64,000 nucleotides of DNA, from UHGV virus genome UHGV-0072281. One strand, written 5' to 3'. The position numbers and the translations under genes are program-made. Shown here piece after piece: positions 1,489 to 51,126 of the stretch; within the stretch, counting starts at the first letter, position 1, and each line of letters begins with the position of its first letter. The notes under the pieces are model-generated. The model was not told the origin of the DNA and did no database searches. It saw only the letters and a list, made by a program, of their open reading frames with translations. Origin of the DNA: a virus.

Positions 1489-2475
1489 ATGGTATATCGT
1501 AAAACGATAGAAAGAACCTCTTCTGATTTAACAGTAGGACGCTTAGCCCGTAGAGATATTCGCAATCCTCAACTTCAGGCATGTTTAATGGGTCCTAACG
1601 GTGCGGTGATTCGTGAAGCACTGTGTAATACCGAGCTGAATACGTTCTCTTTACAAAAAGGAAAAACAATCCAAGGGTTTATCATCACAAAACACATTTA
1701 CGGTGATCCAACGTTACACTGCTTGTATATGCACGAAATTGTACCAGGCTGTTTGAACAAACTGAGTCTTCTATTGGTACTTGACTATACGGGTTTTACG
1801 TACCTTAACCGAATTGCCAGAGGCGTGGAAGAAATTGCTGAGCTTAACGATTTAGGGTTTAGACATACCCACACAGCATATCGTTTAGGTACACGTACGC
1901 TATCGGATGTCACTTTACCGACGAACGTGAAGAACGTCTCCGGCGACTTCTATAAAGACTTAACCGGAGCACAACGTGAGCAGCTCATGACATTGTTTGG
2001 CACTAGTGTCGTTGAAAATATCAATGCTGACCCTGTAACGCGTTCTCGACAAATAATGCCGCAAGTTGAAACATTGGTGGAGTTAGTGCGGCACGTCAAT
2101 CACTACACTTACGTTTGGATGGGCGGTAATGACGTTGTGGGTGTGGTGCAAGTTAAATCACGTAATCTTAGTGAGTGCGAACTAAAAGCCATTGCGGTAA
2201 GTGAATCACACCGGGGCCGTGGGATTGGGCGTGCGTTGCTGTATCGTGCTTTACAGATTGCATCGACAACAGCGGCACCATTAGAAATAGGGTGTTACAA
2301 TAACAATTCAGCATTTAGACACCTGGCTGTAGATTTGTTTAAATTCCGTCCCTACGAGTACGAATTTGTTTTAGTGCGCGACGACGATGTCGTCAGTTGG
2401 GAGCGTCGGAAAAACCGCGTCGCGTTAGTGTTAGGCGACGAAATGTCAACGTTACAAGGCGGAATTAATGCATAA
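1489..2475 (+). CDS. Protein with C-terminal GNAT-like acetyltransferase motif
   Basis: 328-aa ORF; segment IAVSESHRGRGIGRALLYRAL resembles the GNAT acetyl-CoA binding motif; RBS AAGGAG. Confidence 0.45.
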   Translation: MVYRKTIERTSSDLTVGRLARRDIRNPQLQACLMGPNGAVIREALCNTELNTFSLQKGKTIQGFIITKHIYGDPTLHCLYMHEIVPGCLNKLSLLLVLDYTGFTYLNRIARGVEEIAELNDLGFRHTHTAYRLGTRTLSDVTLPTNVKNVSGDFYKDLTGAQREQLMTLFGTSVVENINADPVTRSRQIMPQVETLVELVRHVNHYTYVWMGGNDVVGVVQVKSRNLSECELKAIAVSESHRGRGIGRALLYRALQIASTTAAPLEIGCYNNNSAFRHLAVDLFKFRPYEYEFVLVRDDDVVSWERRKNRVALVLGDEMSTLQGGINA

Positions 2476-3283
2476 ACCAATTATAAAGTGGATGGGTGGC
2501 AAATCGCGGATCATCGACACCTTACTACAAGTCTTACCTGAACGTACAACATTCGTTGAACCGTTTGTTGGTGCAGGGTCGGTGTTTTTGAACACACGTT
2601 ATAAACGTTACATTCTTGCTGACTCTAACCCTGACTTAATACAGTTGCTGAACGTGGCGAAAGACCAACCTGAAGAACTTATCTTAAAGTCGAAACCGCT
2701 ATTCGAAGACGGTAACGATTGTATTAAGTATATGGAGAGACGAGAACTGTTTAATCGCGAAACGGATATGGCCCCGTTAGACCGTGCTGCAATGTTTCTG
2801 TACTTAATGCGTCATGGTTTTAACGGGATGTGTCGTTACAACGGCGGCGGAGGTTTTAACGTTCCGTTTGGTCGCTATCCTAACGGTGTGTATTACCCGT
2901 TAGAAGAGATTCGTGGTTGGGCTAAACGTTGTCAAGAACCGGAATACTTAGAAATTGTTTGTGAAGATTTCCGAACAGTTTTAGAGCGTACACCGGAAGA
3001 CAGCGTGATTTACGCAGACCCACCTTATATACCGCTCTCAGAGACCGCTAAACACGCCCAATACCATCGGAAGGAGTTTTCCCAGGCTGACCATCGGGAA
3101 CTCGCCAGAGCGCTGTTTAAGCAGGTTGAGAAGGGGAATAGCGTTGTGTTGTCCAATGCAGATACGTTACTAACGCGTGAGATTTATTACGGGTTCGAAT
3201 GGCGTTCTGTGGAAGTAGGGCGGTATATGGGTGCATCGGGCGCTGCTCGTAAAACGGTAACGGAATTGTTAGGAGTGCTCTAA
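2468..3283 (+). CDS. dam: DNA adenine (N6) methyltransferase, Dam family
   Basis: Close match to E. coli Dam signature blocks: KWMGGK, VEPFVGAGSVFLNT, YILAD, and catalytic DPPY; overlaps upstream gene by 8 nt. Confidence 0.9.
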   Translation: MHKPIIKWMGGKSRIIDTLLQVLPERTTFVEPFVGAGSVFLNTRYKRYILADSNPDLIQLLNVAKDQPEELILKSKPLFEDGNDCIKYMERRELFNRETDMAPLDRAAMFLYLMRHGFNGMCRYNGGGGFNVPFGRYPNGVYYPLEEIRGWAKRCQEPEYLEIVCEDFRTVLERTPEDSVIYADPPYIPLSETAKHAQYHRKEFSQADHRELARALFKQVEKGNSVVLSNADTLLTREIYYGFEWRSVEVGRYMGASGAARKTVTELLGVL

Positions 3284-4056
3284 TGCGTATAGTGGATATC
3301 CACGATTATCGTAATGACCATTTAGCGATTGGTGTAGAAGGTAAAATGGTTTCGTTAACCCGTGTACGTAAAGGGTTAATGGAAAAGGAAATCATTCGGG
3401 AATCTGAAGACCCTACTTTTATCATCCTTTCGAATACTAACCAGTTACAGGGCATCTTTTCAGGGCGTGCAGACGGTAAGATTTTCTATATGTCCGCGAT
3501 CGTTGTGTTTGCGAAGAAGAACATCAACTTCGCCCAACTCAAACGTTTGTTAAACGTGAAGATGTTCGATGTCACGTACCCTGCTAACGACCTAAAACGT
3601 CGTAATCAATTAATGACGTTTTTAGGTATGCAACCAACGTCTATCGATTATGACCTTACGATTACTGAAAAGCCGGAAGTGCGCACTGACTTACCTGACG
3701 TAGACGATGTTGAATCCTTAACGTTAGAAGAGACGTTTACGATTCCTAAGGTTGTTAATGTCAACCTGGACACGCACTGTTTAGGGTTGTTAGCCGTAGG
3801 TGCAGCAGAAGGGTTGTGTTGTCGTAAAGACGGTAAGGTTGAAGGTATCTTAGTCTATTCGAAAATCAACGAAAAGACATTTGCCACCGAAGGCTTTTTC
3901 TATAACGATTGCACTTACGGAAACGCTCTACTAACCACGTATTTCCGTATTGCTTATCTGAAAGGCGCAACTGTACGCCTCACGTTTCCATACACAGCTC
4001 CACCGTCTATGGGTGGAGTTGAGGTAGAAGCATTAACCGGTCACTTTATCTTTTAA
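3283..4056 (+). CDS. Hypothetical protein
   Basis: 257-aa ORF, start overlaps previous stop (ATG/TAA overlap). Confidence 0.6.
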   Translation: MRIVDIHDYRNDHLAIGVEGKMVSLTRVRKGLMEKEIIRESEDPTFIILSNTNQLQGIFSGRADGKIFYMSAIVVFAKKNINFAQLKRLLNVKMFDVTYPANDLKRRNQLMTFLGMQPTSIDYDLTITEKPEVRTDLPDVDDVESLTLEETFTIPKVVNVNLDTHCLGLLAVGAAEGLCCRKDGKVEGILVYSKINEKTFATEGFFYNDCTYGNALLTTYFRIAYLKGATVRLTFPYTAPPSMGGVEVEALTGHFIF

Positions 4057-4065
4057 GGACGATGA

Positions 4066-4293
4066 ATGGAAATCAAACGTATTGTAACCAAAAACAAACA
4101 GATTGTTTACGTCGCAGGTGATAACGAATTCTCGGCGGTAATTAACAGCGAAAATGCGCTCATTATCGGTTATCCGGGTAAAGTTATTACGCGCAGTCAC
4201 CAACGTGCGATTGACAAACTTATCGCGAAAGCGAAAGCGCGCGACGGTGTTGGTTCAGTACAAACCCACACAGGGTTAACGCTGACCCTCTAG
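4066..4293 (+). CDS. Hypothetical protein
   Basis: 75-aa ORF with GGA-rich RBS. Confidence 0.5.
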   Translation: MEIKRIVTKNKQIVYVAGDNEFSAVINSENALIIGYPGKVITRSHQRAIDKLIAKAKARDGVGSVQTHTGLTLTL

Positions 4294-4332
4294 TCAGCAG
4301 GTAATATGACCTCTTAACTGGAGACTTTAATA

Positions 4333-4839
4333 ATGAGTGAGACTCTGGATTTTAATCAGCTCGAACAACACGATTTTGATCTCGGTGTTCGTGATATCGA
4401 TGCTGATCATGAAACACGTTGTAAAGAGCTGTTTAACCGTTACGGTCAGCTCATCACCGGTGCCTCTGATGACACCGAATTCAGTTTAGATGAGTTTGAA
4501 AAAGTTTTGTCGTGTTTTATCACCGATTGCCTGGCGAAGAAAGCGTTACTTGTAGAACTGAACTTAGACTCCGTCGAACCTACCGATGCCCACGCGGTGT
4601 TGAAAGAATCCATTATCCCAACTGATGAGATTATGGACACGGTAGCAGGTATTCGTGGTACGTTTGAAACCGCTGTAGATGAATACACGGAACAGCTTCG
4701 TGAGTCAGGACTGACGTTGTGTGCGCCAGCAGGCGAGCAATTACCGTCCGACGCAGAAACTGAAGAAGCGCGTAGCCGCTTAGCACGTTATGTTATCACG
4801 TCTATCTTGGTAGATGATCGCGAAGAGAATCTGCTGTAA
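4333..4839 (+). CDS. Hypothetical acidic protein
   Basis: 168-aa ORF, very acidic; followed by terminator. Confidence 0.6.
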   Translation: MSETLDFNQLEQHDFDLGVRDIDADHETRCKELFNRYGQLITGASDDTEFSLDEFEKVLSCFITDCLAKKALLVELNLDSVEPTDAHAVLKESIIPTDEIMDTVAGIRGTFETAVDEYTEQLRESGLTLCAPAGEQLPSDAETEEARSRLARYVITSILVDDREENLL

Positions 4840-4845
4840 GCTGCA

Positions 4846-4880
4846 CCCTCTCTCCAGACGGAGAGAGGGTGTATTTTTTT
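4846..4880 (+). terminator. Rho-independent terminator
   Basis: Hairpin ccctctctcc-agac-ggagagaggg followed by T7 run. Confidence 0.75.
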
Positions 4881-4935
4881 ACGCGTATAGCCGTAGTTAT
4901 GCACAAGTAAACAAAATTAATTGAGGAACAATCTG

Positions 4936-5253
4936 ATGTGGTTAAGTGCTATTCATCGCGATTTACCGAAAACGGCAGTGAGTTTTGCTAAGAAAACTCC
5001 TGTTCCTAACGTTGGTGTTGCTAAATTTGAACGAGTGGAAGAGGGGCAATTCGTTGTAACGGATCATAAAGAAAACGAATTTATGTTGTATCATCCAGAA
5101 GTGGATACCTCTGAAATTTGTGAGGGTGTTTTTTTATTGTCCTGGCAAGACCCTGAAACTAAAGAGTGGAAGTGGTGCACCGCTAAACCATTAAAAGAAA
5201 TCGAAAACGGTTATGGGATTGGAGAAATTTATGTCGAACCAGAACCACACTAA
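4936..5253 (+). CDS. Hypothetical protein
   Basis: ORF with GAGGA RBS before ATG 4936 (track begins at in-frame TTG 4921). Confidence 0.5.
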   Translation: MWLSAIHRDLPKTAVSFAKKTPVPNVGVAKFERVEEGQFVVTDHKENEFMLYHPEVDTSEICEGVFLLSWQDPETKEWKWCTAKPLKEIENGYGIGEIYVEPEPH

Positions 5254-5298
5254 TTTCGATATAACATCAGCATTGCGTTGTTAACGGTCTAAAAAATT

Positions 5299-5331
5299 TA
5301 AGATATATTTCATCTATGTGAGAATTCTCAC
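5299..5331 (+). promoter_or_regulatory. Promoter-like motif variant (AGATATATTTCATC) plus palindrome gtgagaattctcac
   Basis: Resembles the TCAGATATATATTAC family; sits 25 nt upstream of RBS of gene at 5355. Confidence 0.35.
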
Positions 5332-5354
5332 TTAACTAAATGGAGTAATCTAAA

Positions 5355-5624
5355 ATGGCTAAGATTTACATTGTTGAAAAACGTTCAGGTAATGTTCTTT
5401 CTTATCACGAAGAAGGCAAACCCGAAAGAGTTAAAACGCTCAAGCTTGAAGGTTTTGATGTGAAAAGCCTGCGTAAAGGCGTGAAGATTACTTTCAAAGG
5501 TTTGATTCGTGCAAGTAACTTACACATCATTAAAACGGACGGAACGATGGTTGCATTAGCACCGGCTACCGCTGCGAAAACGACAGCCGGTCGGGGTTGC
5601 TACGGCAGCAGTCGTAAGATTTAA
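5355..5624 (+). CDS. Hypothetical protein
   Basis: 89-aa ORF with RBS TGGAG. Confidence 0.6.
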   Translation: MAKIYIVEKRSGNVLSYHEEGKPERVKTLKLEGFDVKSLRKGVKITFKGLIRASNLHIIKTDGTMVALAPATAAKTTAGRGCYGSSRKI

Positions 5625-5630
5625 GCAGTG

Positions 5631-5669
5631 CCCCTCTCTCCTAGCGGAGAGAGGGTACTTTTATTTTTC
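5631..5669 (+). terminator. Rho-independent terminator
   Basis: Hairpin cccctctctcc-tagc-ggagagaggg followed by T-run; near-copy of the 4846 terminator stem. Confidence 0.75.
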
Positions 5670-5682
5670 TTCGAGGTGTGTG

Positions 5683-6171
5683 ATGACAACGGTATTAGTA
5701 ACAAAGGATTACATTTTAGCTGATCGTTTAGTGGAATATAGTGGAACAGTTAAAGAATTGCCCAAACTACACAAACACAAAAACAAGTTTGTTTTCTACA
5801 CGGGGGAACGTGTACTGGACACCGAGTTTTGGAAAATGTCGATGACCGTTACTATAGAAAAATATTTAGACGAGGATAAACGCAAGAAAGTTGAGCCGTT
5901 GCTTGTGGAACTTTTCGAAAAAGAGCAATTGTTTGATCAAATCGTCATTTTTACGGTCAGAGAAACCTATTGGCTAGGATTAGTATCAGATAAGTTTAAA
6001 ACGTTTGTAATAAATAAAAATGCGGTCTGGACGACGGGATCTGGTGGCGGCTTTGCGCGGGCAGCTTGGGCAACAGGAATATCAGAAAAGAAAATTATGC
6101 CATTGGTAGGATCAATTGATACAGCATCATCACAAACGTACGACTTGTTTTACAGGAAGCATTTACGATGA
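5683..6171 (+). CDS. Hypothetical protein
   Basis: ORF with GAGG RBS 6 nt before ATG 5683 (GTG at 5680 also possible). Confidence 0.6.
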   Translation: MTTVLVTKDYILADRLVEYSGTVKELPKLHKHKNKFVFYTGERVLDTEFWKMSMTVTIEKYLDEDKRKKVEPLLVELFEKEQLFDQIVIFTVRETYWLGLVSDKFKTFVINKNAVWTTGSGGGFARAAWATGISEKKIMPLVGSIDTASSQTYDLFYRKHLR

Positions 6172-10526: not shown

Positions 10527-10572
10527 CCTACCGCCCGATTCTATGGGCGGTAGGTGTTTTATTTTTTTTTTT
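10527..10572 (+). terminator. Rho-independent terminator
   Basis: Hairpin cctaccgccc-gattctat-gggcggtagg followed by a long T-run. Confidence 0.8.
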
Positions 10573-10588: not shown

Positions 10589-11152
10589 GTGGCCACATCT
10601 TACGTACCTGATTTGAGTCTGACCTCAGCAGAGCTAGTGGTCGCTTTAATCAATCATGATAACGGGTTACAGCTTACGCTAAACGAAATCCGTATTAGCG
10701 GAACCGTAACAAACCCATCACCAACAACTTCGCGTCGTAACACCATCACCGAAATCAGTAAAATCAGAAAACCGGATGGTGCGTCTGTTGTGGTCTACTA
10801 CGACAGACTTGACGCCGATGAGGTATTAACGTCTGAACCTATTTTGATTTCGTTAGACGGTACCGAAGCGAATATCCGTGACGTTCTGAGTGTTGTAAAT
10901 GAACACTGCGGTACGAACTTACAGCCTGAAGACTTACGCGTTTCTGATATTACTTCAGGTAACGATCCTATTGCCGTTAACGTTGCCGACGATTCACCTG
11001 CGTGGATGAATGCGTTTATGGTGACGTTATTTGATAAAACTGAGCGTGCGTTAGCGAACGAAGAAGATGAAATCTTCTGCATCGGTGACGATAGCGTTCT
11101 TACCTTTGAGGTTCCAGATGACGACTCAGCTGAAGAAAACCCGACTACATGA
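10589..11152 (+). CDS. Hypothetical protein, member of fibre-adjacent paralogue family
   Basis: GTG start with GGAGGG RBS; paralogous to 16883-17395 (shared PDLSLTS...NHD...YYDRLxA...GDDSV(V)LTF). Confidence 0.6.
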   Translation: MATSYVPDLSLTSAELVVALINHDNGLQLTLNEIRISGTVTNPSPTTSRRNTITEISKIRKPDGASVVVYYDRLDADEVLTSEPILISLDGTEANIRDVLSVVNEHCGTNLQPEDLRVSDITSGNDPIAVNVADDSPAWMNAFMVTLFDKTERALANEEDEIFCIGDDSVLTFEVPDDDSAEENPTT

Positions 11153-11357
11153 ACTTGATGATTTTTACCGGTAATGGAGGACAAAGCAAACTTTTATCAA
11201 GACTTAGCAAACCAAAATCATGAAAACGCGAAATTGAACATCGCTTTCACGTTAGAAGATGATGTATTAAAACCAGGGCAATAGTAACCCGCTTATAAAA
11301 AATTGGGGGGTAAACTACTCTCCTGATCTTTTAGCTCCCGATAGAGAATTAAATATC

Positions 11358-14300
11358 ATGGCTAAAGCGGTAAAGAAAATTCGTTTACACGATTTACGTC
11401 CATACACCGGTGATATCGGTGAAGGCGTTTTACTTTTCTCCAAGGATGAGAAAGATTATAAGTTACCAGTCCGTGAGGTTATTGCAGATATTGACACCGT
11501 ACGTAATGCGGTGGCTGATGCACAAACAGCAGCAGCACAATCACAAGAAGCTGCAACTCAGGCTACGCAAGCAAAAGTTTTAGCAGAAGCAGCAAAACAA
11601 CAAACTGACACAGTTGCGGCAACGGTTGCACAACAAGCGCAAACCGTAACCGAAAAAGCAACAGAAGTCAGTACAAAACATACCGAAGTGTTAGCCGCGA
11701 AAACGGCGGTAGACGCTCAGGCTGTGTCCATTAATGAGAAAGCACAAGCGGTAGCGACAAGTGAGGCAAACGTCACACAAGCAGAAACTACCGTTACGAA
11801 GAAAGCAGAAACTGTTGCCACACAAGCCGGGCGGGTCGAACAGTCACTTACGGCAGTTAACGAAGCTGTTGCGTCGGTAGAGTCGTCGAAAGCTGCCGTA
11901 GAAGCTAAAGCAACACAAGTTACTTCAGACAAAGAAACCGCAGAGAATGCGGCAACTCGTTCTGAGGCAGCCGCTAAGCGTGCGGAAGAAATCGTTGCTC
12001 AAGGTACTGTTGATGCAACAACGACCAGTAAAGGTGTCGTTAAACTTAATAATACCTTAACCAGTGACTCTGTTACTGAAGCGGCTACACCGTCAACGGT
12101 TAAGCAGTTAAATGATGAATTGCAGTTAAAAGCAAACCGTCACAACCCAACTTTTACCGGTGTGGTAAAAGCACCGACTCCTGCTTCGGATTCTAACGAC
12201 ACGAGCGTCTCAACGACTGCATGGGTACGGCAAGCGATTGCTGAATTAGTGGACTCTTCACCCGAGACGTTAGATACGTTATCAGAAATTGCAGCCGCGT
12301 TAGGAAACGATCCTAACTTTGCGACAACGATAACGAACCAACTAGCGGGTAAACAGCCGTTAAGTCCGTTACTGACAGCGATTGCCGCAGTCACCACCGC
12401 TGCAAACAAACTCCCTTACTTTACCGGTAGTAATCAGGTAGGGTTAGCGGATTTCACCTCGACTGCTCGCGAATTATTAGCGAAAGGGTCGACGGCCGAT
12501 ATCATCAGCTTCCTGGGGTTGAAAACCACCGTTGATAAAGCTGCGGGCGCTATGCAACGTAGTTCTAACGGTGCCGATATTCCCGATAAAGCCACCTTCG
12601 CGAAGAACATCGGGTTGTCAGCAGAGACGTACCTGAAGTTTAATGGGGAGATGCCAGTAGATGCAGACATCAACACCTTCGGCCCGGTTGAAGCGTTTAT
12701 GGGCGTTTGGTCTAAAGCCACGTCTACGAACGCAACAGTTGCAAAGAATTTTCCAGAAGAAAACGCAGTTGGTTGTTTAGAAGTTTTCAAAGCGGGTAAC
12801 TACAGCGGAAGTCAACGTTTTACTGTACGTAACGGTAACATCTATACACGTCATCTTACTGCTGCATGGAATGGGACAAACGGTCCTTGGTCAGAATGGC
12901 GTAATGTTGCTGGTTCCGCCAGAACGTTGAACGAACAAAATAATCTGAATGACTTGGGTGGTGAGGCCGCACTAGGTGTTTGGAGAAACAGTTCGAGTAC
13001 ATTAGCAACAACCGCGCTGAATTATCCTGAAGAAGGCTCTTTTGCCCAGGGCGTATTAGAAGTTCTCAAAGGTGGCAACTATAGTTACACACAACGCTAC
13101 ACTACCCGCAGAGGCAATGTATACGTTCGTTGTCTACAAGCCACGTGGGACGCTTCAAACCCGCAATGGGAAGAATGGCGCTGTGTTGGTCATCAATCTG
13201 TCAGCACATATTTCGAAGGCGATCTCGACACGTTAACTTCGCCTAACCGTTATAGCATTACTGATAAAGCGACAAACGTTCCTTTAATCGACGGTACTAA
13301 AATTATCGGTATCTTGGACGTCAGTCGTCGTTTTGATAACATTAGTGTCGAACAAAAATTCACCTCGTTTGGTTCTGGGAGCAAAACTACAGGGCGTATT
13401 TTCACACGTGTATTCTCCGGTCAATCAAACGGTAAATGGAGTGAGTGGCGAGAGGTTTTCACCTCGTATTCACTTCCGTTAGTTTTAGGTATCGGTGGGG
13501 TTGCAGCTAAGGTTGACCCGTTAGACTGGCAAACCTACGACTTCGTTCCTGGACAGATGTTAACGACGCCGTTGAACACCATGAAAAACATTCCTGCAGG
13601 AATGGATTGGGGTACTATTGACGGTAACTTAGTTAACATCCTTGTAGGGCCGTCTGACGACACCGGTACTGGTCGGAGTATGCTGGTTTGGCGTAGCACA
13701 GTGTCTGTTGCTAACTATCGCTTCTTTGCGGTACGTATCGCTGGTGAGAAGGGTAGTCGTACGATTACGCCGCGTCAGATGCCTGTGTTGAACGCAGCGC
13801 ACACCTGGTCAGAGAAACAAACGTTCTCTAAAGGTTTAGCGGGTGAATTAACCGGTAATGCTTCTTCAGCAACGAAACTTCAAACAGCCCGTTTAATCGG
13901 CGGCGTAAGTTTCGACGGCACCAAGGACATTGCACTCCCTGGCGTTAACGCACAAGGTACGCAGAACACCACTGGGAATGCGGCTACCGCAACCAAATTA
14001 CAAACGGCTAGAAATATCAACGGTGTGAAATTCGATGGCTCTGGAGACATCAATATCAACACCTTAGTAGGTCGTGGACGTGTCACTGCTCTGGCTGGAT
14101 CAAACAAAGGTACACCTGGTATCCAGATGTACGAGGTTTACAATAACGGTTATCCGACCGCGTATGGTAATTTACTGCATTTAGGTGGTGCTACTGCCGT
14201 AGGTGAAGGTGAACTACTGATCGGTTGGTCTGGTACCAGTGGCGCACACGCACCTGTTTATATCCGTAGTCGTCGAGACACTACAGATGCGCCGTGGTCA

Positions 14301-15674
14301 GAATGGGCGCAAGTTTATACTGCACGAGACAGCATTCCGGGTGTCAACACCACAGGTAATCAGGATACGACCGGAAACGCAGCTACCGCTACAAAACTTA
14401 AAACCACACGTAAAATAGGCGGGGTTAATTTTGACGGAACGGGTGATATTAACCTACCAGGTGTAAACCAGCAGGGCAACCAGAACACAACAGGTAACGC
14501 TGCGACAGCGACTAAACTCCAGACTGCCCGAAATATTGGTGGTGTGGCTTTCGATGGTACTAAAGACATCAGTTTACCTGGGGTAAACCAAACAGGGAAT
14601 CAGTCAACTACGGGGAACGCTGCTACTGCAACGAAGTTGCAGACAGCAAGAAGTATCAACAACGTACCATTCGATGGTTCGAAAGATATTACTCTAACGC
14701 CAAGTAATATCGGTGCGGCTGCCTCCTCAATGACTTGGTTAAATACCGGGGATAATGGTGCAGCGCTTAGTACAGATTCTTTTATTACTTTGTTGCAAAA
14801 TAACGGGGCTTTTAATTCCAGAACTTGGATAGCCCGATGCTCTTGGGCGTATGCTCAAAATGGCGTGATTCCAGATAGTGAAACAAAGTGCGGTACTATT
14901 CCACTTGCAGGCTCAGTTATTGAAGTTGTAAGTTTTGGGATGACCAACTACACCATTCGTATCACAACCCCTACGACGACATCGGTTAGCGGAGCAAAAA
15001 CCAACTCTGAGTTTATTTATTGCTATAATGGTAAAGATTATTCTCCAGGTTGGCGACGGCAGTATAACACTGTTAATAAACCGTCTGCTAGTGACGTTGG
15101 CGCTCTACCAACTGGTGGCGGTACTGTCAGTGGCGATTTGACGGTTAATGGTAAACTGGTTACGAAAAATGCCGATTTTCGAATTGCTTACGGTAGTTAC
15201 GGTTTCATTTTACGTAACGATGGCAATAGCACCTATTTCTTAGTAACAGCATCTGGTCAAGCTGCAACGGGTTCCTGGAATAACTTACGACCGATGTATT
15301 TTAGCAACTCTACCGGTCAAGTAACCTTCGGGCACAACGTTACTGGTAACGGGAACGGTTCGTTTAACGACGTACAGATTCGTTCTGACCGTCGTAACAA
15401 ACGTAATCTGGTGAAACTGGATAATGCATTAGACCGTTTAGAACTCCTTACCGGGTATCTGTACGAAGTTCAACATCCTGACGATGGATGGAATACTTCG
15501 GTAGGCTTAATTGCCCAGGATGCATTAGTTGCGTTACCTGAATTGGTTACTGAAGACGATGACGCTATTTCTGGTGAAAAACGTTTACGTTTGAACTATA
15601 ATGGTGTTATTGCGTTGTTGGTAGAGGGCATTAAAGACCTTCGTCGTGAGCTTAAGGAACTCAAGGGGAAATAA
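11358..15674 (+). CDS. Long tail fibre protein with C-terminal intramolecular chaperone (peptidase S74-like) domain
   Basis: 1438 aa; Ala/Thr/Gln-rich coiled-coil-like N-terminal region, about six copies of a ~30-aa repeat (TTGNAATATKLQTAR...FDG..DI.LPGVN), C-terminal block resembling the self-cleaving chaperone of endosialidase-type fibres. Confidence 0.8.
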   Translation: MAKAVKKIRLHDLRPYTGDIGEGVLLFSKDEKDYKLPVREVIADIDTVRNAVADAQTAAAQSQEAATQATQAKVLAEAAKQQTDTVAATVAQQAQTVTEKATEVSTKHTEVLAAKTAVDAQAVSINEKAQAVATSEANVTQAETTVTKKAETVATQAGRVEQSLTAVNEAVASVESSKAAVEAKATQVTSDKETAENAATRSEAAAKRAEEIVAQGTVDATTTSKGVVKLNNTLTSDSVTEAATPSTVKQLNDELQLKANRHNPTFTGVVKAPTPASDSNDTSVSTTAWVRQAIAELVDSSPETLDTLSEIAAALGNDPNFATTITNQLAGKQPLSPLLTAIAAVTTAANKLPYFTGSNQVGLADFTSTARELLAKGSTADIISFLGLKTTVDKAAGAMQRSSNGADIPDKATFAKNIGLSAETYLKFNGEMPVDADINTFGPVEAFMGVWSKATSTNATVAKNFPEENAVGCLEVFKAGNYSGSQRFTVRNGNIYTRHLTAAWNGTNGPWSEWRNVAGSARTLNEQNNLNDLGGEAALGVWRNSSSTLATTALNYPEEGSFAQGVLEVLKGGNYSYTQRYTTRRGNVYVRCLQATWDASNPQWEEWRCVGHQSVSTYFEGDLDTLTSPNRYSITDKATNVPLIDGTKIIGILDVSRRFDNISVEQKFTSFGSGSKTTGRIFTRVFSGQSNGKWSEWREVFTSYSLPLVLGIGGVAAKVDPLDWQTYDFVPGQMLTTPLNTMKNIPAGMDWGTIDGNLVNILVGPSDDTGTGRSMLVWRSTVSVANYRFFAVRIAGEKGSRTITPRQMPVLNAAHTWSEKQTFSKGLAGELTGNASSATKLQTARLIGGVSFDGTKDIALPGVNAQGTQNTTGNAATATKLQTARNINGVKFDGSGDININTLVGRGRVTALAGSNKGTPGIQMYEVYNNGYPTAYGNLLHLGGATAVGEGELLIGWSGTSGAHAPVYIRSRRDTTDAPWSEWAQVYTARDSIPGVNTTGNQDTTGNAATATKLKTTRKIGGVNFDGTGDINLPGVNQQGNQNTTGNAATATKLQTARNIGGVAFDGTKDISLPGVNQTGNQSTTGNAATATKLQTARSINNVPFDGSKDITLTPSNIGAAASSMTWLNTGDNGAALSTDSFITLLQNNGAFNSRTWIARCSWAYAQNGVIPDSETKCGTIPLAGSVIEVVSFGMTNYTIRITTPTTTSVSGAKTNSEFIYCYNGKDYSPGWRRQYNTVNKPSASDVGALPTGGGTVSGDLTVNGKLVTKNADFRIAYGSYGFILRNDGNSTYFLVTASGQAATGSWNNLRPMYFSNSTGQVTFGHNVTGNGNGSFNDVQIRSDRRNKRNLVKLDNALDRLELLTGYLYEVQHPDDGWNTSVGLIAQDALVALPELVTEDDDAISGEKRLRLNYNGVIALLVEGIKDLRRELKELKGK
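13850..14700 (+). repeat. In-frame tandem repeats inside the tail-fibre gene (coordinates approximate)
   Basis: Recurring nucleotide/peptide unit encoding NTTGNAATATKLQTAR-IGGV-FDG; repetition gives spurious antisense ORFs at 13880-14107 and 14360-14569. Confidence 0.7.
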
Positions 15675-15677
15675 AGG

Positions 15678-16220
15678 ATGGCAGTTGTTGAAGTTCCAGG
15701 TTATATCGGTTCTTCTGCAAAGGAAGTTACTGGCGAAGAGATGATGTCTGAAGCGATGACCGAACTCGGCGTTGTCGTACCAGGGATGATGTCTGAAATG
15801 GCAGGTCTGTCAATGGGTTGCTATGTAACGTTTGAGGAGTGGACTACCGTTGAAGATGGCCTTGATGTTCGATGGATCGGTGCGTCTACTTCCGAGTGGA
15901 CAGACGGCTACGGCAAACCGGTCGTTAAAGGAAAAATATCCGGGGCGAAGATGTTTGGTTTGAATGTCGAAGCGGAGCTGATCGGAATGCACTATAAAAA
16001 GCATCCGCGATTCCCTTGGTCAGTCGAACTAAAATGTCGCTGCGAAAAAGGTAGCAATTTCAGTTATACGTTAGACGGTGTAAGCGGTTCTGTATCGAGT
16101 GATGGTACCGGTACAACCGGAATGCAAATTCGTACATTCAAATTTAACAATTTCAGTGCAGCATTTAAGGAAAAGATAGAGCAAGTTGGTGTCAAGATGC
16201 CAACATCACGTAAATATTAA
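15678..16220 (+). CDS. Small Gly-rich protein immediately after the tail fibre gene (possible adhesin or assembly factor)
   Basis: 180 aa; paralogous to 16277-16780 (shared N-terminus MAV...G.SAK..TGE..MS.A...LG...P.MMS.M.G.SMGC). Confidence 0.6.
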   Translation: MAVVEVPGYIGSSAKEVTGEEMMSEAMTELGVVVPGMMSEMAGLSMGCYVTFEEWTTVEDGLDVRWIGASTSEWTDGYGKPVVKGKISGAKMFGLNVEAELIGMHYKKHPRFPWSVELKCRCEKGSNFSYTLDGVSGSVSSDGTGTTGMQIRTFKFNNFSAAFKEKIEQVGVKMPTSRKY

Positions 16221-16276: not shown

Positions 16277-16780
16277 ATGGCGGTTAACTCGGGTTGGGTC
16301 GGTTCTTCGGCTAAGAGCGAAACGGGCGAACAGTGGATGAGCGCTGCGGGTGCCAAATTGGGATTGGGTAAACCTTTTATGATGAGTCAAATGGTGGGAC
16401 GATCTATGGGCTGTAAAATTTCAACTGCTGCATATAGTGATTCTTTAGGTAAGAAATGGGGTGCTGTGGGATCAAGTTGGCCATTAACTCAGAAAAATCA
16501 GGGAACCATTCAAAACGCGGGTAACTGCGGGGTGGGAACTTTAGTAGGTATAGAGTTACAATTAACGACGGTAGTTGCCAACGCAACGCCTACTCTAGCG
16601 GTCTATTTACAAGGCGGCAGGGCCTCTAACATCACTGCAAATCTAGGCGGTAACACTTGTGCGCTGACCTATCAGCAGGTTATTAATGGCCAACATTATT
16701 ACTGGACCAATAACATTAGTGCCGCGTTCCAAAACGTGATGAAATCGACCGGTACACTAAGAGATTTCAAAATTAGTTAA
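16277..16780 (+). CDS. Small Gly-rich protein, paralogue of 15678-16220
   Basis: 167-aa ORF; N-terminal similarity to upstream gene; poly-G immediately upstream. Confidence 0.6.
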   Translation: MAVNSGWVGSSAKSETGEQWMSAAGAKLGLGKPFMMSQMVGRSMGCKISTAAYSDSLGKKWGAVGSSWPLTQKNQGTIQNAGNCGVGTLVGIELQLTTVVANATPTLAVYLQGGRASNITANLGGNTCALTYQQVINGQHYYWTNNISAAFQNVMKSTGTLRDFKIS

Positions 16781-16882: not shown

Positions 16883-17395
16883 GTGGAACAATTCACGCCA
16901 GATTTGTCGTTAACTTCACTTAACATGGTTATTTCACTGGTTAACCATGACCTCCAACTTGACTTGCAAGAGAATGAGGTCGAAGTCAGTGACGTAAAGA
17001 CCAGTGACGAAATGGAACGTGACACCACTGCTGTTGTAAAGATAAAACGTTCTGGTAACAGAACGTTACAAATCTACTACAACCGTTTAACTGCAGAGCG
17101 GTGGTTAAACCGACAACCTGTACTTGTAAAAGTAACAGGCGAAGGGTTTAATGCGCACGATCTAATCGAATCCATCAACACCGTTTGTGGTGCTAACTTA
17201 CAAACCGACGATTTAACCGACCAGTCGTTCACGGTGGGTAAAGACGCGGTAATATTTAGCATCGCTCCGAGTTCCCTCGGCTACAAAGGTCAGTTCTCCG
17301 TGGTGGTTTTCGGTCCAGATGAAACACCGTGTGGTATCGGTGACGATTCTGTCGTGCTAACGTTTGACAATAAAATCTTAACCTTTGGAGAGTAA
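16883..17395 (+). CDS. Hypothetical protein, paralogue of 10589-11152
   Basis: GTG start with AGGAGG RBS; shared motifs with 10589 gene; precedes second fibre gene. Confidence 0.6.
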   Translation: MEQFTPDLSLTSLNMVISLVNHDLQLDLQENEVEVSDVKTSDEMERDTTAVVKIKRSGNRTLQIYYNRLTAERWLNRQPVLVKVTGEGFNAHDLIESINTVCGANLQTDDLTDQSFTVGKDAVIFSIAPSSLGYKGQFSVVVFGPDETPCGIGDDSVVLTFDNKILTFGE

Positions 17396-17398
17396 TAG

Positions 17399-19531
17399 AT
17401 GAGTCAGCCAATTGGAAAGAAGCGTATTCATGAGCTGGAAACATTTGAAGGTGAATTAGCAGGAGTCGTTCTGCTGATGTCCAAAGACGACAAAGAATAT
17501 AAACTTGACGCATCTCGTTTACAAAACGATAAGCTGTATCTAGCTTGCGGTACACCTTTTCCTAAACTAGTATTCCAAAACGATAAAACACTTTACAATA
17601 TTAATCCGTACAGTGACTACGACACTTATGAAGTTTCTGCAAATAAAGGTCGGGTATCTAAAGTTACTCGTGCCACATTTAGCGTGATGGCTGGGTCTTT
17701 ATCGGTTGGCGAGAAAATACAACTTACAGTTACGCGCAATGGCGTACCATTTCAATTTGAAGTTACCGTATCGGGACCGCGTATCACTACTCCCACTTGG
17801 ACACTTCCAGTTAATGGCGGTAAATTGAGCGTAACGCCAACCTTTGAAGTAACTGACTATCAAGCCTATCCATATACCAACACCGGTAATCAACAGACCG
17901 CTGCCAGTTGGGAAATTTCCACTAGTGAAGATTTCTCAACTACAGTTTTCCAATCACTGAACGACACCGTCAACAAAACAACCATCAGTATCCCAGAAGG
18001 TAAGTTAGAACCAGGTCAAACTTACTACGCACGTGTTCGCTTCCATAACGCAGTAACCGAAAGTGATTGGTCCGTTGTTCAATTCTCAGTCGGCGAAGCA
18101 TTTATTCAGCGTCCTGCACTGATCGAACCCACCGTAGACATGGTGTTAAGCGCATCGAATATTACACTTAAAACTGATGTTTTTAAATGGGTCGGTGACG
18201 AACCTGCGGAGACCCACGTATCGACTGACTGGCAGGTTACTTACGGTAGCAACGATTTTGACGAAATGAATAATCTCGTTAACCAATTAGAAGATGCGAT
18301 TAACCTGACGTCGCTTAAATTACCGTCTGATCGGGTTTACGTTAATAACAGTTATCGTGCACGCGTGCGTTTTCGTGGTGAGAGAAGCGTCAGTGATTGG
18401 TCTGAACCTTTAACGTTCCGTGTAAGTCGCGGGAACGTACCAACAAGTGAATTCCAGTCAATTTCTGCTTCTGGATTTACAGGTAATTCAATCGGTGCTG
18501 AGTTGGCATGTACTGACGACGGTTTGCTGTTTGCTGCTACTGGCGTTGCACAGAAAGCGAAATTCTTACATATCTTTAAGAAAGACTTCCCGTCTTACAA
18601 CAAAGTTGCCTCTTTAACAGCTGCTACTGAGGTTGACGCAGACAGAGATGGTCGCTGTCCGGTCAGTATGTCAGCCGACGGTAAGATTATTGTTGTCGGT
18701 GTTAGCGCATCTAAAGCTAACGAAGACCACGGCGAAGTTATCGTTTACCGTAACCCAGATAACGCTGAGTGGAGTACAATCAACGGAATAACTTTAGCGG
18801 GATTACCCACAGAAGGGTTCCATGGCCTTGCAGTAAAACTGTCAAAAGACGGCAATCGTTTGATTGTGGGTAACGGTACGAAAGTGCTGTCTATGTATTC
18901 CAATACCGATCAATTTGCTACACGTACGGCTGTGTCGCCGACACTAAGTGCCGAAGACGCCACTTGTGGTGGTATTGGTAGCATTGCAATGTCTGAAGAC
19001 GGTAACGGTTTAGTGCTTGGCGAAACTAACGGAACGAAATTCCACGTACTGGCTTGGGAATCGGATAGTTGGGTGACTAAGGCATCTATTACACCAAAAG
19101 ACTTGACTGAGAAAGCAACGATTAAAGTCGCTGCTTCTTCTGACTTGTCTACGATTCTTGTTTCTGTAGTTGAGACACACAAATACTACGTTTACAAGAA
19201 AACCGGTGATAGTTGGTCTCTGTTCCAAACCTTGGATTATACCGAACTGGATTACTCCATTACTTCTACCCGTTACCCGACGGGAGACATTAATGTTGCG
19301 CCTTCCGGAAGCTGGTTAATTTTCGGTATGGTGGGTTCGTTGGGTTCTATTTTCGAATTTCGTAATAGTACCTACCAACGACAAAATAGCATTTACGGCA
19401 GTAGTCTTAGCGATCCTGAGAATTACCACTTCTATACGTCACAAGCCATCAGTGCACAAAACGATTTGTTCGTCGGTGCTGATGTTAAAGAAAGTGCTTC
19501 GTACTTCCCACAAATCAAAGTTTACATGTAA
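17399..19531 (+). CDS. Tail fibre / tail spike-like protein with probable fibronectin type III-like repeats
   Basis: 710 aa; N-terminus (KKRIHELETFEGELAGVVLLMSKDDKEYKL) parallels N-terminus of 11358 fibre (KKIRLHDLRPYTGDIGEGVLLFSKDEKDYKL); repeated ~90-aa beta-rich units ending ..YYARVRFHN.., ..YRARVRFRG.. Confidence 0.65.
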   Translation: MSQPIGKKRIHELETFEGELAGVVLLMSKDDKEYKLDASRLQNDKLYLACGTPFPKLVFQNDKTLYNINPYSDYDTYEVSANKGRVSKVTRATFSVMAGSLSVGEKIQLTVTRNGVPFQFEVTVSGPRITTPTWTLPVNGGKLSVTPTFEVTDYQAYPYTNTGNQQTAASWEISTSEDFSTTVFQSLNDTVNKTTISIPEGKLEPGQTYYARVRFHNAVTESDWSVVQFSVGEAFIQRPALIEPTVDMVLSASNITLKTDVFKWVGDEPAETHVSTDWQVTYGSNDFDEMNNLVNQLEDAINLTSLKLPSDRVYVNNSYRARVRFRGERSVSDWSEPLTFRVSRGNVPTSEFQSISASGFTGNSIGAELACTDDGLLFAATGVAQKAKFLHIFKKDFPSYNKVASLTAATEVDADRDGRCPVSMSADGKIIVVGVSASKANEDHGEVIVYRNPDNAEWSTINGITLAGLPTEGFHGLAVKLSKDGNRLIVGNGTKVLSMYSNTDQFATRTAVSPTLSAEDATCGGIGSIAMSEDGNGLVLGETNGTKFHVLAWESDSWVTKASITPKDLTEKATIKVAASSDLSTILVSVVETHKYYVYKKTGDSWSLFQTLDYTELDYSITSTRYPTGDINVAPSGSWLIFGMVGSLGSIFEFRNSTYQRQNSIYGSSLSDPENYHFYTSQAISAQNDLFVGADVKESASYFPQIKVYM

Positions 19532-19540
19532 GGAAACGCG

Positions 19541-20101
19541 ATGAAATATGCTTATTTAAAAGACGGTAATGTGATCGACTGGAATGTTACCGAAGACATG
19601 ATTGCTTTGCGTGGCCACACTGTAGATATTTATACGCCTGTAGTAGAATCTGCTAAACCGGTTGTTAACCCTGATTGTTATATCGTGTTCGAAACAACAC
19701 CAAAACTGGTAAAAGGCAAGCTGGTTCAACAGTGGGTGACTGAAGTGCTGCCTAAAGAAACGGTAGTACGTAACCAGAAGGCACGTTTAGCGGAAATTCG
19801 TTATGCGAAAGAAACTGCCGGGATTACGTTTAAAGACCAAACTATTCCTACGACACGTGATGTACGTTATCAGTTAATTCAGTCTAAACACGTTGATTCT
19901 ACGCAACCTATTAACTGGAAGCTAGGCGATACGTGGCTAAGTCTTACTCAGGAAGACATTGATGCGCTGCTGGTTGCAATCGCAACTTATGTTGAGAAAT
20001 GCTACGCGGCAGAACGCACAGTCTCCGAGAAAATCACTAAGGTGAAAGCACCTGAAAAACTGGATGTAGAAACCTTATTTAACGACGCTTTCGCAGCGTA
20101 A
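19541..20101 (+). CDS. Hypothetical protein (possible fibre assembly factor by position)
   Basis: 186-aa ORF immediately downstream of fibre gene; function inferred only from position. Confidence 0.5.
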   Translation: MKYAYLKDGNVIDWNVTEDMIALRGHTVDIYTPVVESAKPVVNPDCYIVFETTPKLVKGKLVQQWVTEVLPKETVVRNQKARLAEIRYAKETAGITFKDQTIPTTRDVRYQLIQSKHVDSTQPINWKLGDTWLSLTQEDIDALLVAIATYVEKCYAAERTVSEKITKVKAPEKLDVETLFNDAFAA

Positions 20102-20104
20102 CAC

Positions 20105-20148
20105 GGTAGCAGGGGCTAAGCCCCTGCTACCTTTTTCTTTATTTTTTC
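20105..20148 (+). terminator. Rho-independent terminator
   Basis: Hairpin ggtagcagggg-ctaag-cccctgctacc followed by T-rich run. Confidence 0.8.
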
Positions 20149-34670: not shown

Positions 34671-35218
34671 TCGTCTTCTCCTTTAATTAAACCCAGCTCG
34701 ATCAGAAGATCAAAATCGATTTTACGAAACTTACTATCAAAATTTGAGTCCCAGTCAATATGTAGTCCTTGACGTTCGTCTTCTGTAAACTCGGGATAAA
34801 CTAAACTATGAAAAGTTTCCCTTTCATCGTAAAAACCATCGATGGTGGACTCTGGGTTTCGTGTGACATAAATTGTTACACCGGGAAACGATAAGCCTAG
34901 GGCGGCTACAGATTCAACACTCGGCTCTTGCAAAGCGCGTCGCAAAAGAACGATTTTATGTTTAGGGAATTCCAGCACGCGCTGTTCAAAACCTGGGTTT
35001 CGTTTCTCGATTTCAGCCACAGAAAGATCGGTAAGTTCTGTACAATACATCGGAATAACAACGGTAACTCCGTGACGAATTAATAATCGCTTAACATCGT
35101 CATTGAAATCTTCGCCGTTAATCTGTACATAACAGCCAAACAGTTTCGTAGTTTCTAAAAACTTTTCCAGAAAACGGAATTTACGCTTCGTAATATTGTG
35201 GATCAGAATTGGCTTCAT
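34646..35218 (-). CDS. Hypothetical protein in radical SAM/peptide locus
   Basis: 190-aa ORF overlapping the SPASM rSAM gene end. Confidence 0.5.
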   Translation of the reverse strand: MKPILIHNITKRKFRFLEKFLETTKLFGCYVQINGEDFNDDVKRLLIRHGVTVVIPMYCTELTDLSVAEIEKRNPGFEQRVLEFPKHKIVLLRRALQEPSVESVAALGLSFPGVTIYVTRNPESTIDGFYDERETFHSLVYPEFTEDERQGLHIDWDSNFDSKFRKIDFDLLIELGLIKGEDECLLLTKA

Positions 35219-36503
35219 CTTTGGCTTCTCTCAATTGTTTTTCTTTCTGGGCGCGTTCACGTACACAGCGAGGACAGTAACACATGCTATTATCGTGAAA
35301 ATCCTTCACGGATGTTGTGCCCATTTTCTGCTTCCAATATTCCGCAACCATCAATTTTGCAGTTGTCCAACCACACTGACGACGTTCAGCGTGATATGCT
35401 TTACGGTCTTCTAACGTCCCTTCCCCATTCTCGTAGGAAGCTGCTGCACAGCTACCACAAGCGTGTTTCATTGGACAACCTAAGCACGTCTCAGGATAGT
35501 TGGTGTATTGCGTCTGAATCTCTTCCAGCAGTTTCCCACCGTCTAAACTAACGAATTCGCGACCGACTAACTCAAATACCGCAGAGCGTGACGTTACAGT
35601 CGACATGAAACGGTTACAACCGAAAATCTTCCTGTCAAACCCTAAACAAGTCATGTGCGTTAATGTCCCGCAGAACGGGCGCAAGCGTTCCGGGTTTAAA
35701 CGTACAGTATCGTTGTAAAGTAGCTGATCACGCCAGTTCGGTTCCCAGATAGTGTCGAAATCTAACCCTTCCGGGATGATATGCGAAAGGGTATTACGTG
35801 GGTTGGTGTGTAAACCCTTTTCAACCCAATAATCGACTACATCCATCATTTGTAGCGCTATCGACGTAGCCATACTCCGTGGCATAATGTCTTCGAAGGT
35901 TACGTTACCAGAAATGGTTCCACCTCCCGCCAAATCGATTAGGGATTTCATACCCGCCGCATAATGTGGGAGTGTCTCCAAAGTAAATGTCGCTTTAACC
36001 CCAAGCTCCGCGATACCTACTTCTTTTAGATAATTGTAACCACGTACAGCGGCCTCGTAGGAACCTTCGCGACTCGTTGTAAAAATACGGTACTTATCGT
36101 GCGACTCAGGTAACCCATCAATAGATACCCCGATAGAAAGTCTGTCCTTCCAACGTTCAATAATTTCCCTGTTCAACGGCCTATCTAATAATGTCCCATT
36201 AGTAGAGATACTAAACATAAACGGACGTTTATGTTCTTCACACAACTGCTCGGCTGTTTCGAAAGCAGTCATTAGAAGCTTAGGCTGCATAAACGGTTCA
36301 CCGCCGATAATGTCAATGATGACTTCTACGTTTGGTAAATCTTTATCGCGTTCAAAGCAGGCATGAAGAAAGTCTACAATATCCGCTGCTTTGTTATTGC
36401 GGGGATATTTACGCTCGTAACAATACTCACAGTCCAAATTACACGACAAGTTTGTAACAATCTGGTAAGTCAACTGTTTCGGGTAATTATTTTCTTGGTT
36501 CAT
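35181..36503 (-). CDS. Radical SAM enzyme with C-terminal SPASM-like Cys-rich domain (putative peptide-modifying maturase)
   Basis: N-terminal CNLDCEYC (C-x3-C-x2-C), IIGGEPF glycine-rich SAM motif, C-terminal Cys clusters incl. CLGCPMKHACGSC. Confidence 0.8.
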   Translation of the reverse strand: MNQENNYPKQLTYQIVTNLSCNLDCEYCYERKYPRNNKAADIVDFLHACFERDKDLPNVEVIIDIIGGEPFMQPKLLMTAFETAEQLCEEHKRPFMFSISTNGTLLDRPLNREIIERWKDRLSIGVSIDGLPESHDKYRIFTTSREGSYEAAVRGYNYLKEVGIAELGVKATFTLETLPHYAAGMKSLIDLAGGGTISGNVTFEDIMPRSMATSIALQMMDVVDYWVEKGLHTNPRNTLSHIIPEGLDFDTIWEPNWRDQLLYNDTVRLNPERLRPFCGTLTHMTCLGFDRKIFGCNRFMSTVTSRSAVFELVGREFVSLDGGKLLEEIQTQYTNYPETCLGCPMKHACGSCAAASYENGEGTLEDRKAYHAERRQCGWTTAKLMVAEYWKQKMGTTSVKDFHDNSMCYCPRCVRERAQKEKQLREAKDEANSDPQYYEA

Positions 36504-41618: not shown

Positions 41619-41652
41619 TCTCCTTTATTCGAGACGTCCTTGTCCCGAGTCA

Positions 41653-46836: not shown

Positions 46837-46931
46837 CGTAAAGACTCCTACTTTTTAAATAAAATGGATACCCCTCCCCATTACAGGGAGGGGTTACCTA
46901 CGGACACACAACTGCCCGCAGGCAGCCTGTC

Positions 46932-51116: not shown

Positions 51117-51126
51117 AAAATTCTCC

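Follow-up and report, generated by a model that had tools for sequence, protein, structure and literature searches.

In Salmonella phage S16, the last 113 residues of the fibre protein gp37 form an intramolecular chaperone (IMC) that is autocleaved after trimerisation (PMC7917993). The chain is cut between the two serines of DLNVS^SDRRIKK, by which the docking surface for gp38 becomes exposed, and an equivalent site, DVYIR^SDGRLKI, is present in the fPS phages (PMC7917993). The gp38 protein binds as one monomer per gp37 trimer (3:1), with three tryptophans occupying three equivalent pockets (PMC6851490). A related arrangement of genes is found in UHGV virus genome UHGV-0072281, of which a stretch of 64 kb, hereafter referred to as the window, was analysed out of a genome of roughly 226 kb. 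The gene of interest, located at positions 11358-15674 on the + strand of the window, consists of a single open reading frame (ORF) of 1438 amino acids (aa), which had been assigned as a tail fibre in a first-pass annotation of the same DNA. The coordinates of that assignment prove to be exact, and the assignment itself is borne out by matches to Pfam and to 62 tail-fibre families of the PHROG database, the best of which is phrog_6722 (E 8e-250). The protein is most likely a long receptor-binding tail fibre of a Chimalliviridae-type jumbo phage of enterobacteria, built from exchangeable modules.

From the N- to the C-terminus the fibre comprises an anchor, a coiled-coil-like shaft, knob-like modules, a shaft of 40-aa repeats, a swappable domain, a gp34-like tip and the IMC. 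Three Pfam families are matched above their cut-offs, i.e., Phage_fiber_2 (aa 221-260), Gp34_trimer (aa 1213-1314) and Peptidase_S74 (aa 1343-1397). The reading proposed here, to which a probability of roughly 0.8 is assigned, is that of a modular receptor-binding fibre in which the S74 IMC would drive trimer folding and cleave itself off at R1342|S1343, and in which the tip would be capped by one of two gp38-type adhesins encoded directly downstream. By analogy with S16 and T2 gp37, the IMC would bring the three chains into register. In the folded trimer, Ser1343 would then cleave the Arg1342-Ser1343 bond with the help of Lys1348, such that the 10.9-kDa IMC can leave. The exposed tip, ...NGNGSFNDVQIR, could then be capped by one gp38-type adhesin monomer via its N-terminal helical attachment domain. 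The two adhesins, here called A1 and A2, probably supply the final receptor specificity.

The IMC (aa 1343-1438; 15384-15671, + strand) has a mass of 10.9 kDa and occupies the extreme C-terminus of the fibre. A C-terminal block highlighted in the first-pass annotation, SDRRNKRNLVKLDNALDRLELLTGYLYEV ... NYNGVIALLVEGIKDLRRELKEL, is present verbatim from Ser1343 (nt 15384) onwards, and the Peptidase_S74 family and the cleavage-site serine that were anticipated there are both found. The PF13884 profile matches with 37.4 bits versus a cut-off of 22, residues 1343-1397 covering profile positions 1-57/58, and the match begins exactly at SDRRNK, the start of the last 96 aa. This motif at the domain start contains Ser1343 and, five residues past it, Lys1348. 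A Ser/Lys pair is catalytic in S74 domains. In the IMC alignment the columns S20, D21 and K25 are invariant. All 123 homologues of the fibre contain the SDxRxK motif at 96-97 aa from the C-terminal end, with an IMC of 96-97 aa, and in a search of all six frames of the window the motif occurs only here.

Residues 1278-1436 of the fibre can be aligned to S16 gp37 (PDB chain 6F45_A) with an E-value of 5e-13. At the residue level, QIR|SDRRNKRN is placed over NVS|SDRRIKKD of S16 gp37, such that Ser1343 coincides with the serine of the mapped S16 cleavage site. On the basis of this alignment, autocleavage is predicted between Arg1342 and Ser1343 (15381-15386, + strand), which would release the 96 C-terminal residues (10.9 kDa) from a precursor of 152.7 kDa and leave a mature fibre of 141.8 kDa (predicted masses). 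The IMC profile matches 6F45_A (1e-15), the phage fibre 8JOV (5e-6) and the auto-processing domain of MYRF (7DC3, 4e-4), and weakly the IMC of the GA-1 appendage (3GUD_A, 1.4). Like the endosialidase of K1F (EndoNF) and T5 pb1, the fibre carries a domain of the Pfam S74 family at its extreme C-terminus, with the Ser/Lys pair at the domain start; in EndoNF the pair is Ser911/Lys916, with a spacing of i, i+5. A direct sequence match to the endosialidase or to T5 pb1 is not observed, the nearest solved relatives being S16 gp37, 8JOV and MYRF. Furthermore, the cleaved end of the endosialidase and T5 proteins is itself the functional tip, whereas an adhesin cap is expected on the window fibre. The chaperone-like C-terminus of the first-pass annotation therefore stands, but the endosialidase/T5-type analogue named there is better replaced by gp37-gp38 of T2 and S16, as the fibre is followed by two Gp38_N genes.

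The distal tip (aa 1251-1342; 15108-15383, + strand) precedes the predicted cleavage site and contains a T4 gp34-type trimerisation domain, PF21446 spanning aa 1213-1314 with 80.5 bits; it also matches the structures of T4 gp34 and Mu S. From the anchoring motif of the tip to the cleavage site the distance is constant at 84 aa in all 115 homologues in which the motif was found. Across the 123 homologues the length of the tip and IMC does not change and both are highly conserved, whereas the upstream domains and the adhesins vary. We infer that the distal tip serves as the docking platform for the adhesins.

The same terminal region is found in quite different phages. The last ~112 aa of the fibre (tip and IMC) share 82% identity with the C-terminal end of ORF65 in the Stx-converting podophages P13374, phi191, 75/02 Stx and Ss-VASD. 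The similarity of ORF65 to the fibre is restricted to ...NGNGSFNDVQIR|SDKRNKRN... and the IMC, the last ~20 residues of the tip being shared with an otherwise unrelated, collagen-like fibre in P13374. The minimal mobile unit therefore consists of ~20 mature residues, the IMC and an adhesin. As in the window, ORF65 is followed by an adhesin gene, the 170-aa ORF66, annotated as 'receptor recognizing protein Gp38'. In contrast, the remainder of the 680-aa podophage fibre is made up of collagen-like Gly-X-Y, there is one adhesin instead of two, and the podophages are short-tailed and temperate. The tip/IMC and a short adhesin co-occur also in the SSU5-like phage CMS-2020a. A DUF7941 gene was considered as a further part of the Stx cassette and rejected, P13374 ORF63 being unrelated despite having the same length.

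The two adhesin-like genes, both on the + strand, encode A1 (180 aa; 15678-16220) and A2 (167 aa; 16277-16780). They match Gp38_N (PF21721; cut-off 25 bits) with 43 and 73.6 bits, respectively, as well as phrog_1121, 'tail fiber adhesin' (E 5e-20 for A1), and are paralogous over their full length (30% identity, E 3e-14). In A1 the Gp38_N attachment domain is followed by a beta-rich C-terminal part. The N-terminus of S16 gp38 (PDB chain 6F45_D, residues 1-62) can be aligned with A2, which is 61% identical to the 'receptor recognizing protein Gp38' of Stx phages. In an AlphaFold2 (AF2) model of A2 the predicted local distance difference test (pLDDT) score is ~90 for aa 45-167, which form a confident all-beta C-terminal domain; this domain has no solved structural neighbour and does not match 6F45_D. 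A1 and A2 possess the only two Gp38_N-type N-termini in the whole window, in which there is one SDxRxK junction, and therefore they have just this fibre to dock on within the window. The genes downstream of the fibre encode Gp38_N proteins, and no gene for a Caudo_TAP (Tfa) chaperone is found behind it. At the positions of the S16 docking residues W7/W20/W35, A2 contains W/W/M and A1 Y/M/M, all of which are hydrophobic.

In relatives, the slot after the fibre contains either a 260-aa adhesin with Gp38_N and GP38 domains plus a Gp38_N protein of 147-170 aa, or a single Gp38_N protein of 170 aa. The GP38 polyglycine domain (PF05268) is present in the first adhesin gene of relatives L003-L006. 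Counterparts of the 260-aa adhesin with up to 80% identity are found in T-even phages (PaulHMueller, RB49, JSE) and in the SSU5-like phage CMS-2020a. The 260-aa adhesins show W/W/W at the docking positions, as do both adhesins of phage PEi20. In L006 the second adhesin gene (11301-11744) is called as 147 aa and starts at a methionine equivalent to residue 21 of A2; the start of the attachment domain is therefore missing, which may reflect either a real truncation or an artefact of gene calling.

With the gp37-gp38 system of S16 and T2 (PDB entry 6F45) the locus thus shares the C-terminal ~160 aa of the fibre, including the cleavage motif, and a Gp38_N gene directly after the fibre; in addition, the shaft of the fibre contains the same 40-aa repeat as gp37 of T6 and RB9. 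Several differences are evident, however. The window phage is a jumbo phage of the Chimalliviridae type and not a member of the Straboviridae, and its fibre is a single 1438-aa chain with an N-terminal anchor of its own instead of a gp34-37 assembly. Furthermore, the window contains two short adhesins of 167 and 180 aa, without the polyglycine sandwich and with two or none of the three tryptophans. A precedent for the two-adhesin layout is provided by the Edwardsiella phage PEi20 (Straboviridae, Kanagawavirus), in which an IMC-bearing gp37 is followed by two short Gp38_N proteins of 171 and 165 aa. Unlike the window phage, PEi20 is T4-like with a full gp34-37 fibre and its adhesins keep the three tryptophans; the IMCs are 42% identical.

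A different set of fibres resembles the more proximal parts of the protein. The region of aa ~250-1345, including the 40-aa repeats and the sub-terminal domain, is shared with P2 gpH, P1 gpS, Mu S and Goslar gp090, and approximately half of the fibre within these limits is 50-59% identical to the fibres of Goslar, P1 and P2. The P2 gpH, P1 gpS and Mu S proteins also end in a receptor-binding tip, which is served by a Tfa-type chaperone. In Goslar, also a jumbo phage, the related fibre is followed by a separate Caudo_TAP chaperone gene, whereas the window fibre contains an IMC instead.

The variable sub-terminal domain (aa 1122-1250; 14721-15107, + strand) directly precedes the distal tip. It is covered by an alignment of aa 1117-1263 to PDB chain 8JU3_A, which is named 'Tail fiber protein S, S''. 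In relatives the domain at aa ~1122-1250 is swapped, some of the proteins containing inserts of 50 or 176 aa, while the last ~190 aa are conserved. The domain is a candidate second receptor-binding site. An invertible segment of the S/S' type found in P1 and Mu was considered for this S-like domain and set aside, since the fibre and both adhesin genes share one strand; of the neighbouring genes that were scanned, none matches a recombinase family.

The sub-terminal domain is preceded by the 40-aa repeats. Internal repeats had been noted in the first-pass annotation as about six copies of ~30 aa; their presence is confirmed, but there are five copies, with a period of exactly 40 aa and a conserved core of ~31-34 aa. 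The motif TGNA[AS][ST]ATKL starts at aa 832, 872, 1005, 1045 and 1085, and from these positions two units (aa 829-908; 13842-14081, + strand), a 93-aa insert and three further units (aa 1002-1121; 14361-14720, + strand) can be delineated, the latter block being the one in which units are gained or lost in relatives. Two or more ATKL tetrapeptides occur in just 5 of 2000 shuffles of the protein, as compared with five in 40-aa register in the real fibre, and therefore the repeat is not due to chance. The repeat is found in 293 phage records, including T6/RB9 gp37, P1 Sc and P2 H; searches of Pfam and the PDB with the repeat region give no match at E-values up to 10.

The first-pass annotation had also proposed the repeat number as a plausible site of length variation, and this is indeed what is observed. 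Among the 123 homologues, which are 79-100% identical to the fibre, 5 contain four units, 54 contain five and 64 contain six, the steps always being 40 aa. The number of units would set the length of the fibre shaft. In the window gene the units are 50-63% identical in DNA sequence, with exact matches of at most 9 nt, although their protein identity reaches 80%; within any single gene the units share 44-68% of their DNA sequence, and their longest exact matches span 5-17 nt. For each unit a clear orthologue can be recognised in other genomes (78-99% identity), from which it follows that the units are old and individually conserved. DNA orthology defines a set of six units, of which unit 4 is absent from the window, unit 5 from L003 and L005, and both from L002. 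As different units are absent in different lineages, at least two independent whole-unit events are implied, and the strong divergence of the units in DNA points to rare indels or mosaic exchange, not slippage. The comparison of homologues also reveals that unit content assorts independently of tip type. Altogether, these data argue for copy-number change by rare gain, loss or recombination of whole units and against a slippage-type hot spot.

The remaining modules are located upstream. The N-terminal ~40 aa (11358-11477, + strand) contain the motif KKIRLHDL..G...VLL.SKD.K.YKL. This anchor motif is shared with a 710-aa protein of the window (44% identity over fibre aa 1-36, BLASTP E 3e-7) and with a 153-aa protein of relatives (50% identity over fibre aa 1-50), and may function as a module for attachment to the virion or baseplate. 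It is followed by a stretch rich in Ala, Thr, Val, Glu and Gln (aa 45-215; 11490-12002, + strand), which, with one glycine and no proline in its composition, is probably an alpha-helical coiled-coil shaft. A match of aa 45-256 to SMC coiled coils is weak and sub-threshold; tail-fibre PHROGs span aa 52-434. A Phage_fiber_2 repeat (PF03406, 40.9 bits, cut-off 22) is present at aa 221-260 (12018-12137, + strand). Further downstream, three tandem modules of ~90 aa (12630-13457, + strand) have W[SE]EW ends at aa 511, 604 and 694, and the 93-aa insert between the repeat blocks (aa 909-1001; 14082-14360, + strand), with a WSEW end at aa 980, constitutes a fourth. These four modules are called knob-like in a purely descriptive sense; sequence searches of Pfam and the PDB at E-values up to 10 give no matches to them. 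A scan of NCBIfam yielded no informative names. The fibre gene obtains no megablast match in the phage collection, and therefore no sequenced phage isolate has it at ≥85% identity.

A number of observations weigh against the proposed mechanism. The main weakness is that the three docking tryptophans of S16 gp38 are not kept in the window adhesins; in addition, neither PF05268 nor glycine runs are present in A1 or A2. An AF2 monomer model of aa 1240-1438 has a mean pLDDT of 46.3 and is too poor for a check of the IMC fold, although this is unsurprising for an intertwined trimer. The window covers 64 kb of ~226 kb, and a further S74-type fibre may be encoded outside it. Domain content, cleavage motif, homologies, gene order and copy-number polymorphism are directly established; trimerisation, cleavage, adhesin docking and the receptor-binding role are deduced from homology and gene order. 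Finally, receptor binding could take place mainly at the swappable Mu/P1 S-like domain.

The last point can be extended to an alternative in which the fibre binds its receptor via the S-like domain (aa 1122-1250), A1 and A2 are assembly or accessory factors, and nothing docks after the IMC has left. Such a role would be consistent with the match to 8JU3_A, with the finding that this domain is the exchanged part of the fibre among relatives, and with the reduced number of docking tryptophans (0/3 in A1 and 2/3 in A2). It is difficult to reconcile, however, with the scores of A1 and A2, which both exceed the Pfam threshold for Gp38_N, the attachment domain of a structurally proven tip adhesin, and which both belong to the 'tail fiber adhesin' family phrog_1121. 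Moreover, the same slot in relatives contains a T-even-type GP38 adhesin with up to 80% identity, and the set of tip, IMC and adhesin moves jointly between unrelated phages. Receptor binding without docked adhesins is therefore regarded as unlikely.

An explanation that concerns the repeats has a much smaller chance of being correct, namely that the 40-aa array is a contingency locus, in which frequent slipped-strand or unequal recombination would rapidly switch fibre length within a population. The occurrence of four, five or six always exact units in homologues of 79-100% identity might be taken as a sign of such switching, but Tandem Repeats Finder detects no DNA array in the fibre gene, the units of one gene are too dissimilar in DNA (44-68% identity), and the age of the units, evident from their orthologues in other genomes (78-99% identity), is at odds with it as well. 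The independence of copy number from tip type is as expected from mosaic recombination. It is hardly credible, finally, that the protein is a component of the baseplate wedge: the idea derives from the name 'MAG TPA: Baseplate wedge protein' of an identical sequence in NCBI nr (DAY64651.1), whereas the strong profile matches are all to tail-fibre families, homology extends to P1 S, P2 H, Mu S, T4 gp34, S16 gp37 and the Goslar fibre, and the chain terminates in an IMC, behind which adhesin genes are located. The self-cleaving, adhesin-capped fibre thus remains the preferred reading; it is a new fibre within a known, T2/S16-type mechanism, and no new mechanism is revealed.

The fibre belongs to a widespread group of large phage genomes. 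An identical protein is encoded on a 226-kb contig annotated as a Caudoviricetes metagenome-assembled genome (MAG), and the 123 homologues (79-100% identity) are mostly located on contigs of 220-227 kb from Salmonella, Shigella, E. coli and Enterobacter assemblies. The same phage genome of ~222-227 kb occurs as a single contig in many isolate assemblies of these four groups, and also as the 'plasmid' records NZ_CP173450.1 (E. coli 98232, 221,873 bp) and NZ_CP134650.1 (Enterobacter ludwigii, 222,441 bp). Large virion proteins encoded in the window show 44-50% identity to their counterparts in SPN3US and in the phiEaH2/Asesino group, the values for SPN3US being 45-50%. For persistent, assembly-associated lytic jumbo phages the genus 'Bapsvirus' has been proposed (PMC12768965; bioRxiv 10.1101/2024.12.31.630880); these members of the Chimalliviridae have genomes of ~220-249 kb, are found in Salmonella, E. 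coli and Shigella assemblies and are distant from Seoulvirus (PMC12768965). In a comparison with the genus description only, the host phage fits 'Bapsvirus' by size, hosts and distant relation to Seoulvirus. The term 'tail fib' does not appear in either of these two reports.

The fibre gene is part of a larger block of virion genes. A DUF7941 virion structural protein (187 aa; 10589-11152, + strand; PF25613, 71.5 bits) heads the fibre module, and a paralogue (170 aa; 16883-17395; 51.4 bits) heads a second one. The pair matches phrog_2935 and phrog_1037, 'virion structural protein', and may act as fibre adaptors. The second fibre module (16883-20101) further comprises the 710-aa fibre-like protein (17399-19531), which shares the N-terminal anchor and has Ig-like and beta-propeller-like matches, and a 186-aa protein (phrog_10508), the counterpart of which in L002 is PF14301 (DUF4376). 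The 710-aa gene is absent from some relatives. In relatives L002-L006 two extra genes (~2450-5925) are located between DUF7941 and the fibre, encoding the 153-aa protein with the fibre anchor motif and a 1001-aa enzyme-like protein with no family match on record. At the corresponding position, 11153-11357, the window has a deletion of ~3.4 kb, with a remnant at 11186-11281 that represents the last 32 codons of the 1001-aa gene.

Strong terminator-like hairpins on the + strand, with stems of 11-12 bp containing 8-9 GC pairs and followed by a T run, are found at 10527-10554 and 20105-20131. The fibre block of ~9.5 kb that they bracket suggests one transcriptional, and possibly one recombinational, unit. 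A scan for sigma-70 promoters is uninformative, with 11 sites versus a mean of 14.7 in shuffled controls. Phages of this type rely on RNA polymerases of their own, which would account for the low count. Elsewhere in the window, four consecutive large paralogous 'virion structural proteins' of 400, 1726, 1393 and 1440 aa are encoded at 40413-55452 (- strand); they cross-match phrog_2163, 7449, 8078 and 7557, and the family also matches jumbo phages of the SPN3US/phiEaH2 type. A radical SAM domain protein of 439 aa (phrog_1802, E 1e-114) is encoded at 35181-36503 (- strand).

A more speculative extension of the adhesin-capped fibre model, which is put forward tentatively and with the odds against it, is that A1 and A2 compete for the single trimeric tip. 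A virion would then carry mixed fibre tips with two receptor specificities, which, together with the exchange of adhesins with T-even, Stx and SSU5-like phages, might underlie the distribution over several genera (Salmonella, E. coli, Shigella and Enterobacter); the beta domain of A2 would represent a receptor-binding fold without a solved relative.

Host range in this jumbo-phage lineage, which persists in hundreds of clinical isolates of Salmonella, E. coli and Shigella (PMC12768965), is probably determined mainly by the fibre locus. While gp38 has been described as a Straboviridae protein (PMC12032242), the cassette of IMC tip plus gp38 adhesin extends beyond the T-even phages to podophages, an SSU5-like phage and nucleus-forming jumbo phages. 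The locus offers a modular handle for the prediction or re-engineering of host range, at the level of the adhesin, the sub-terminal domain or the length of the shaft.

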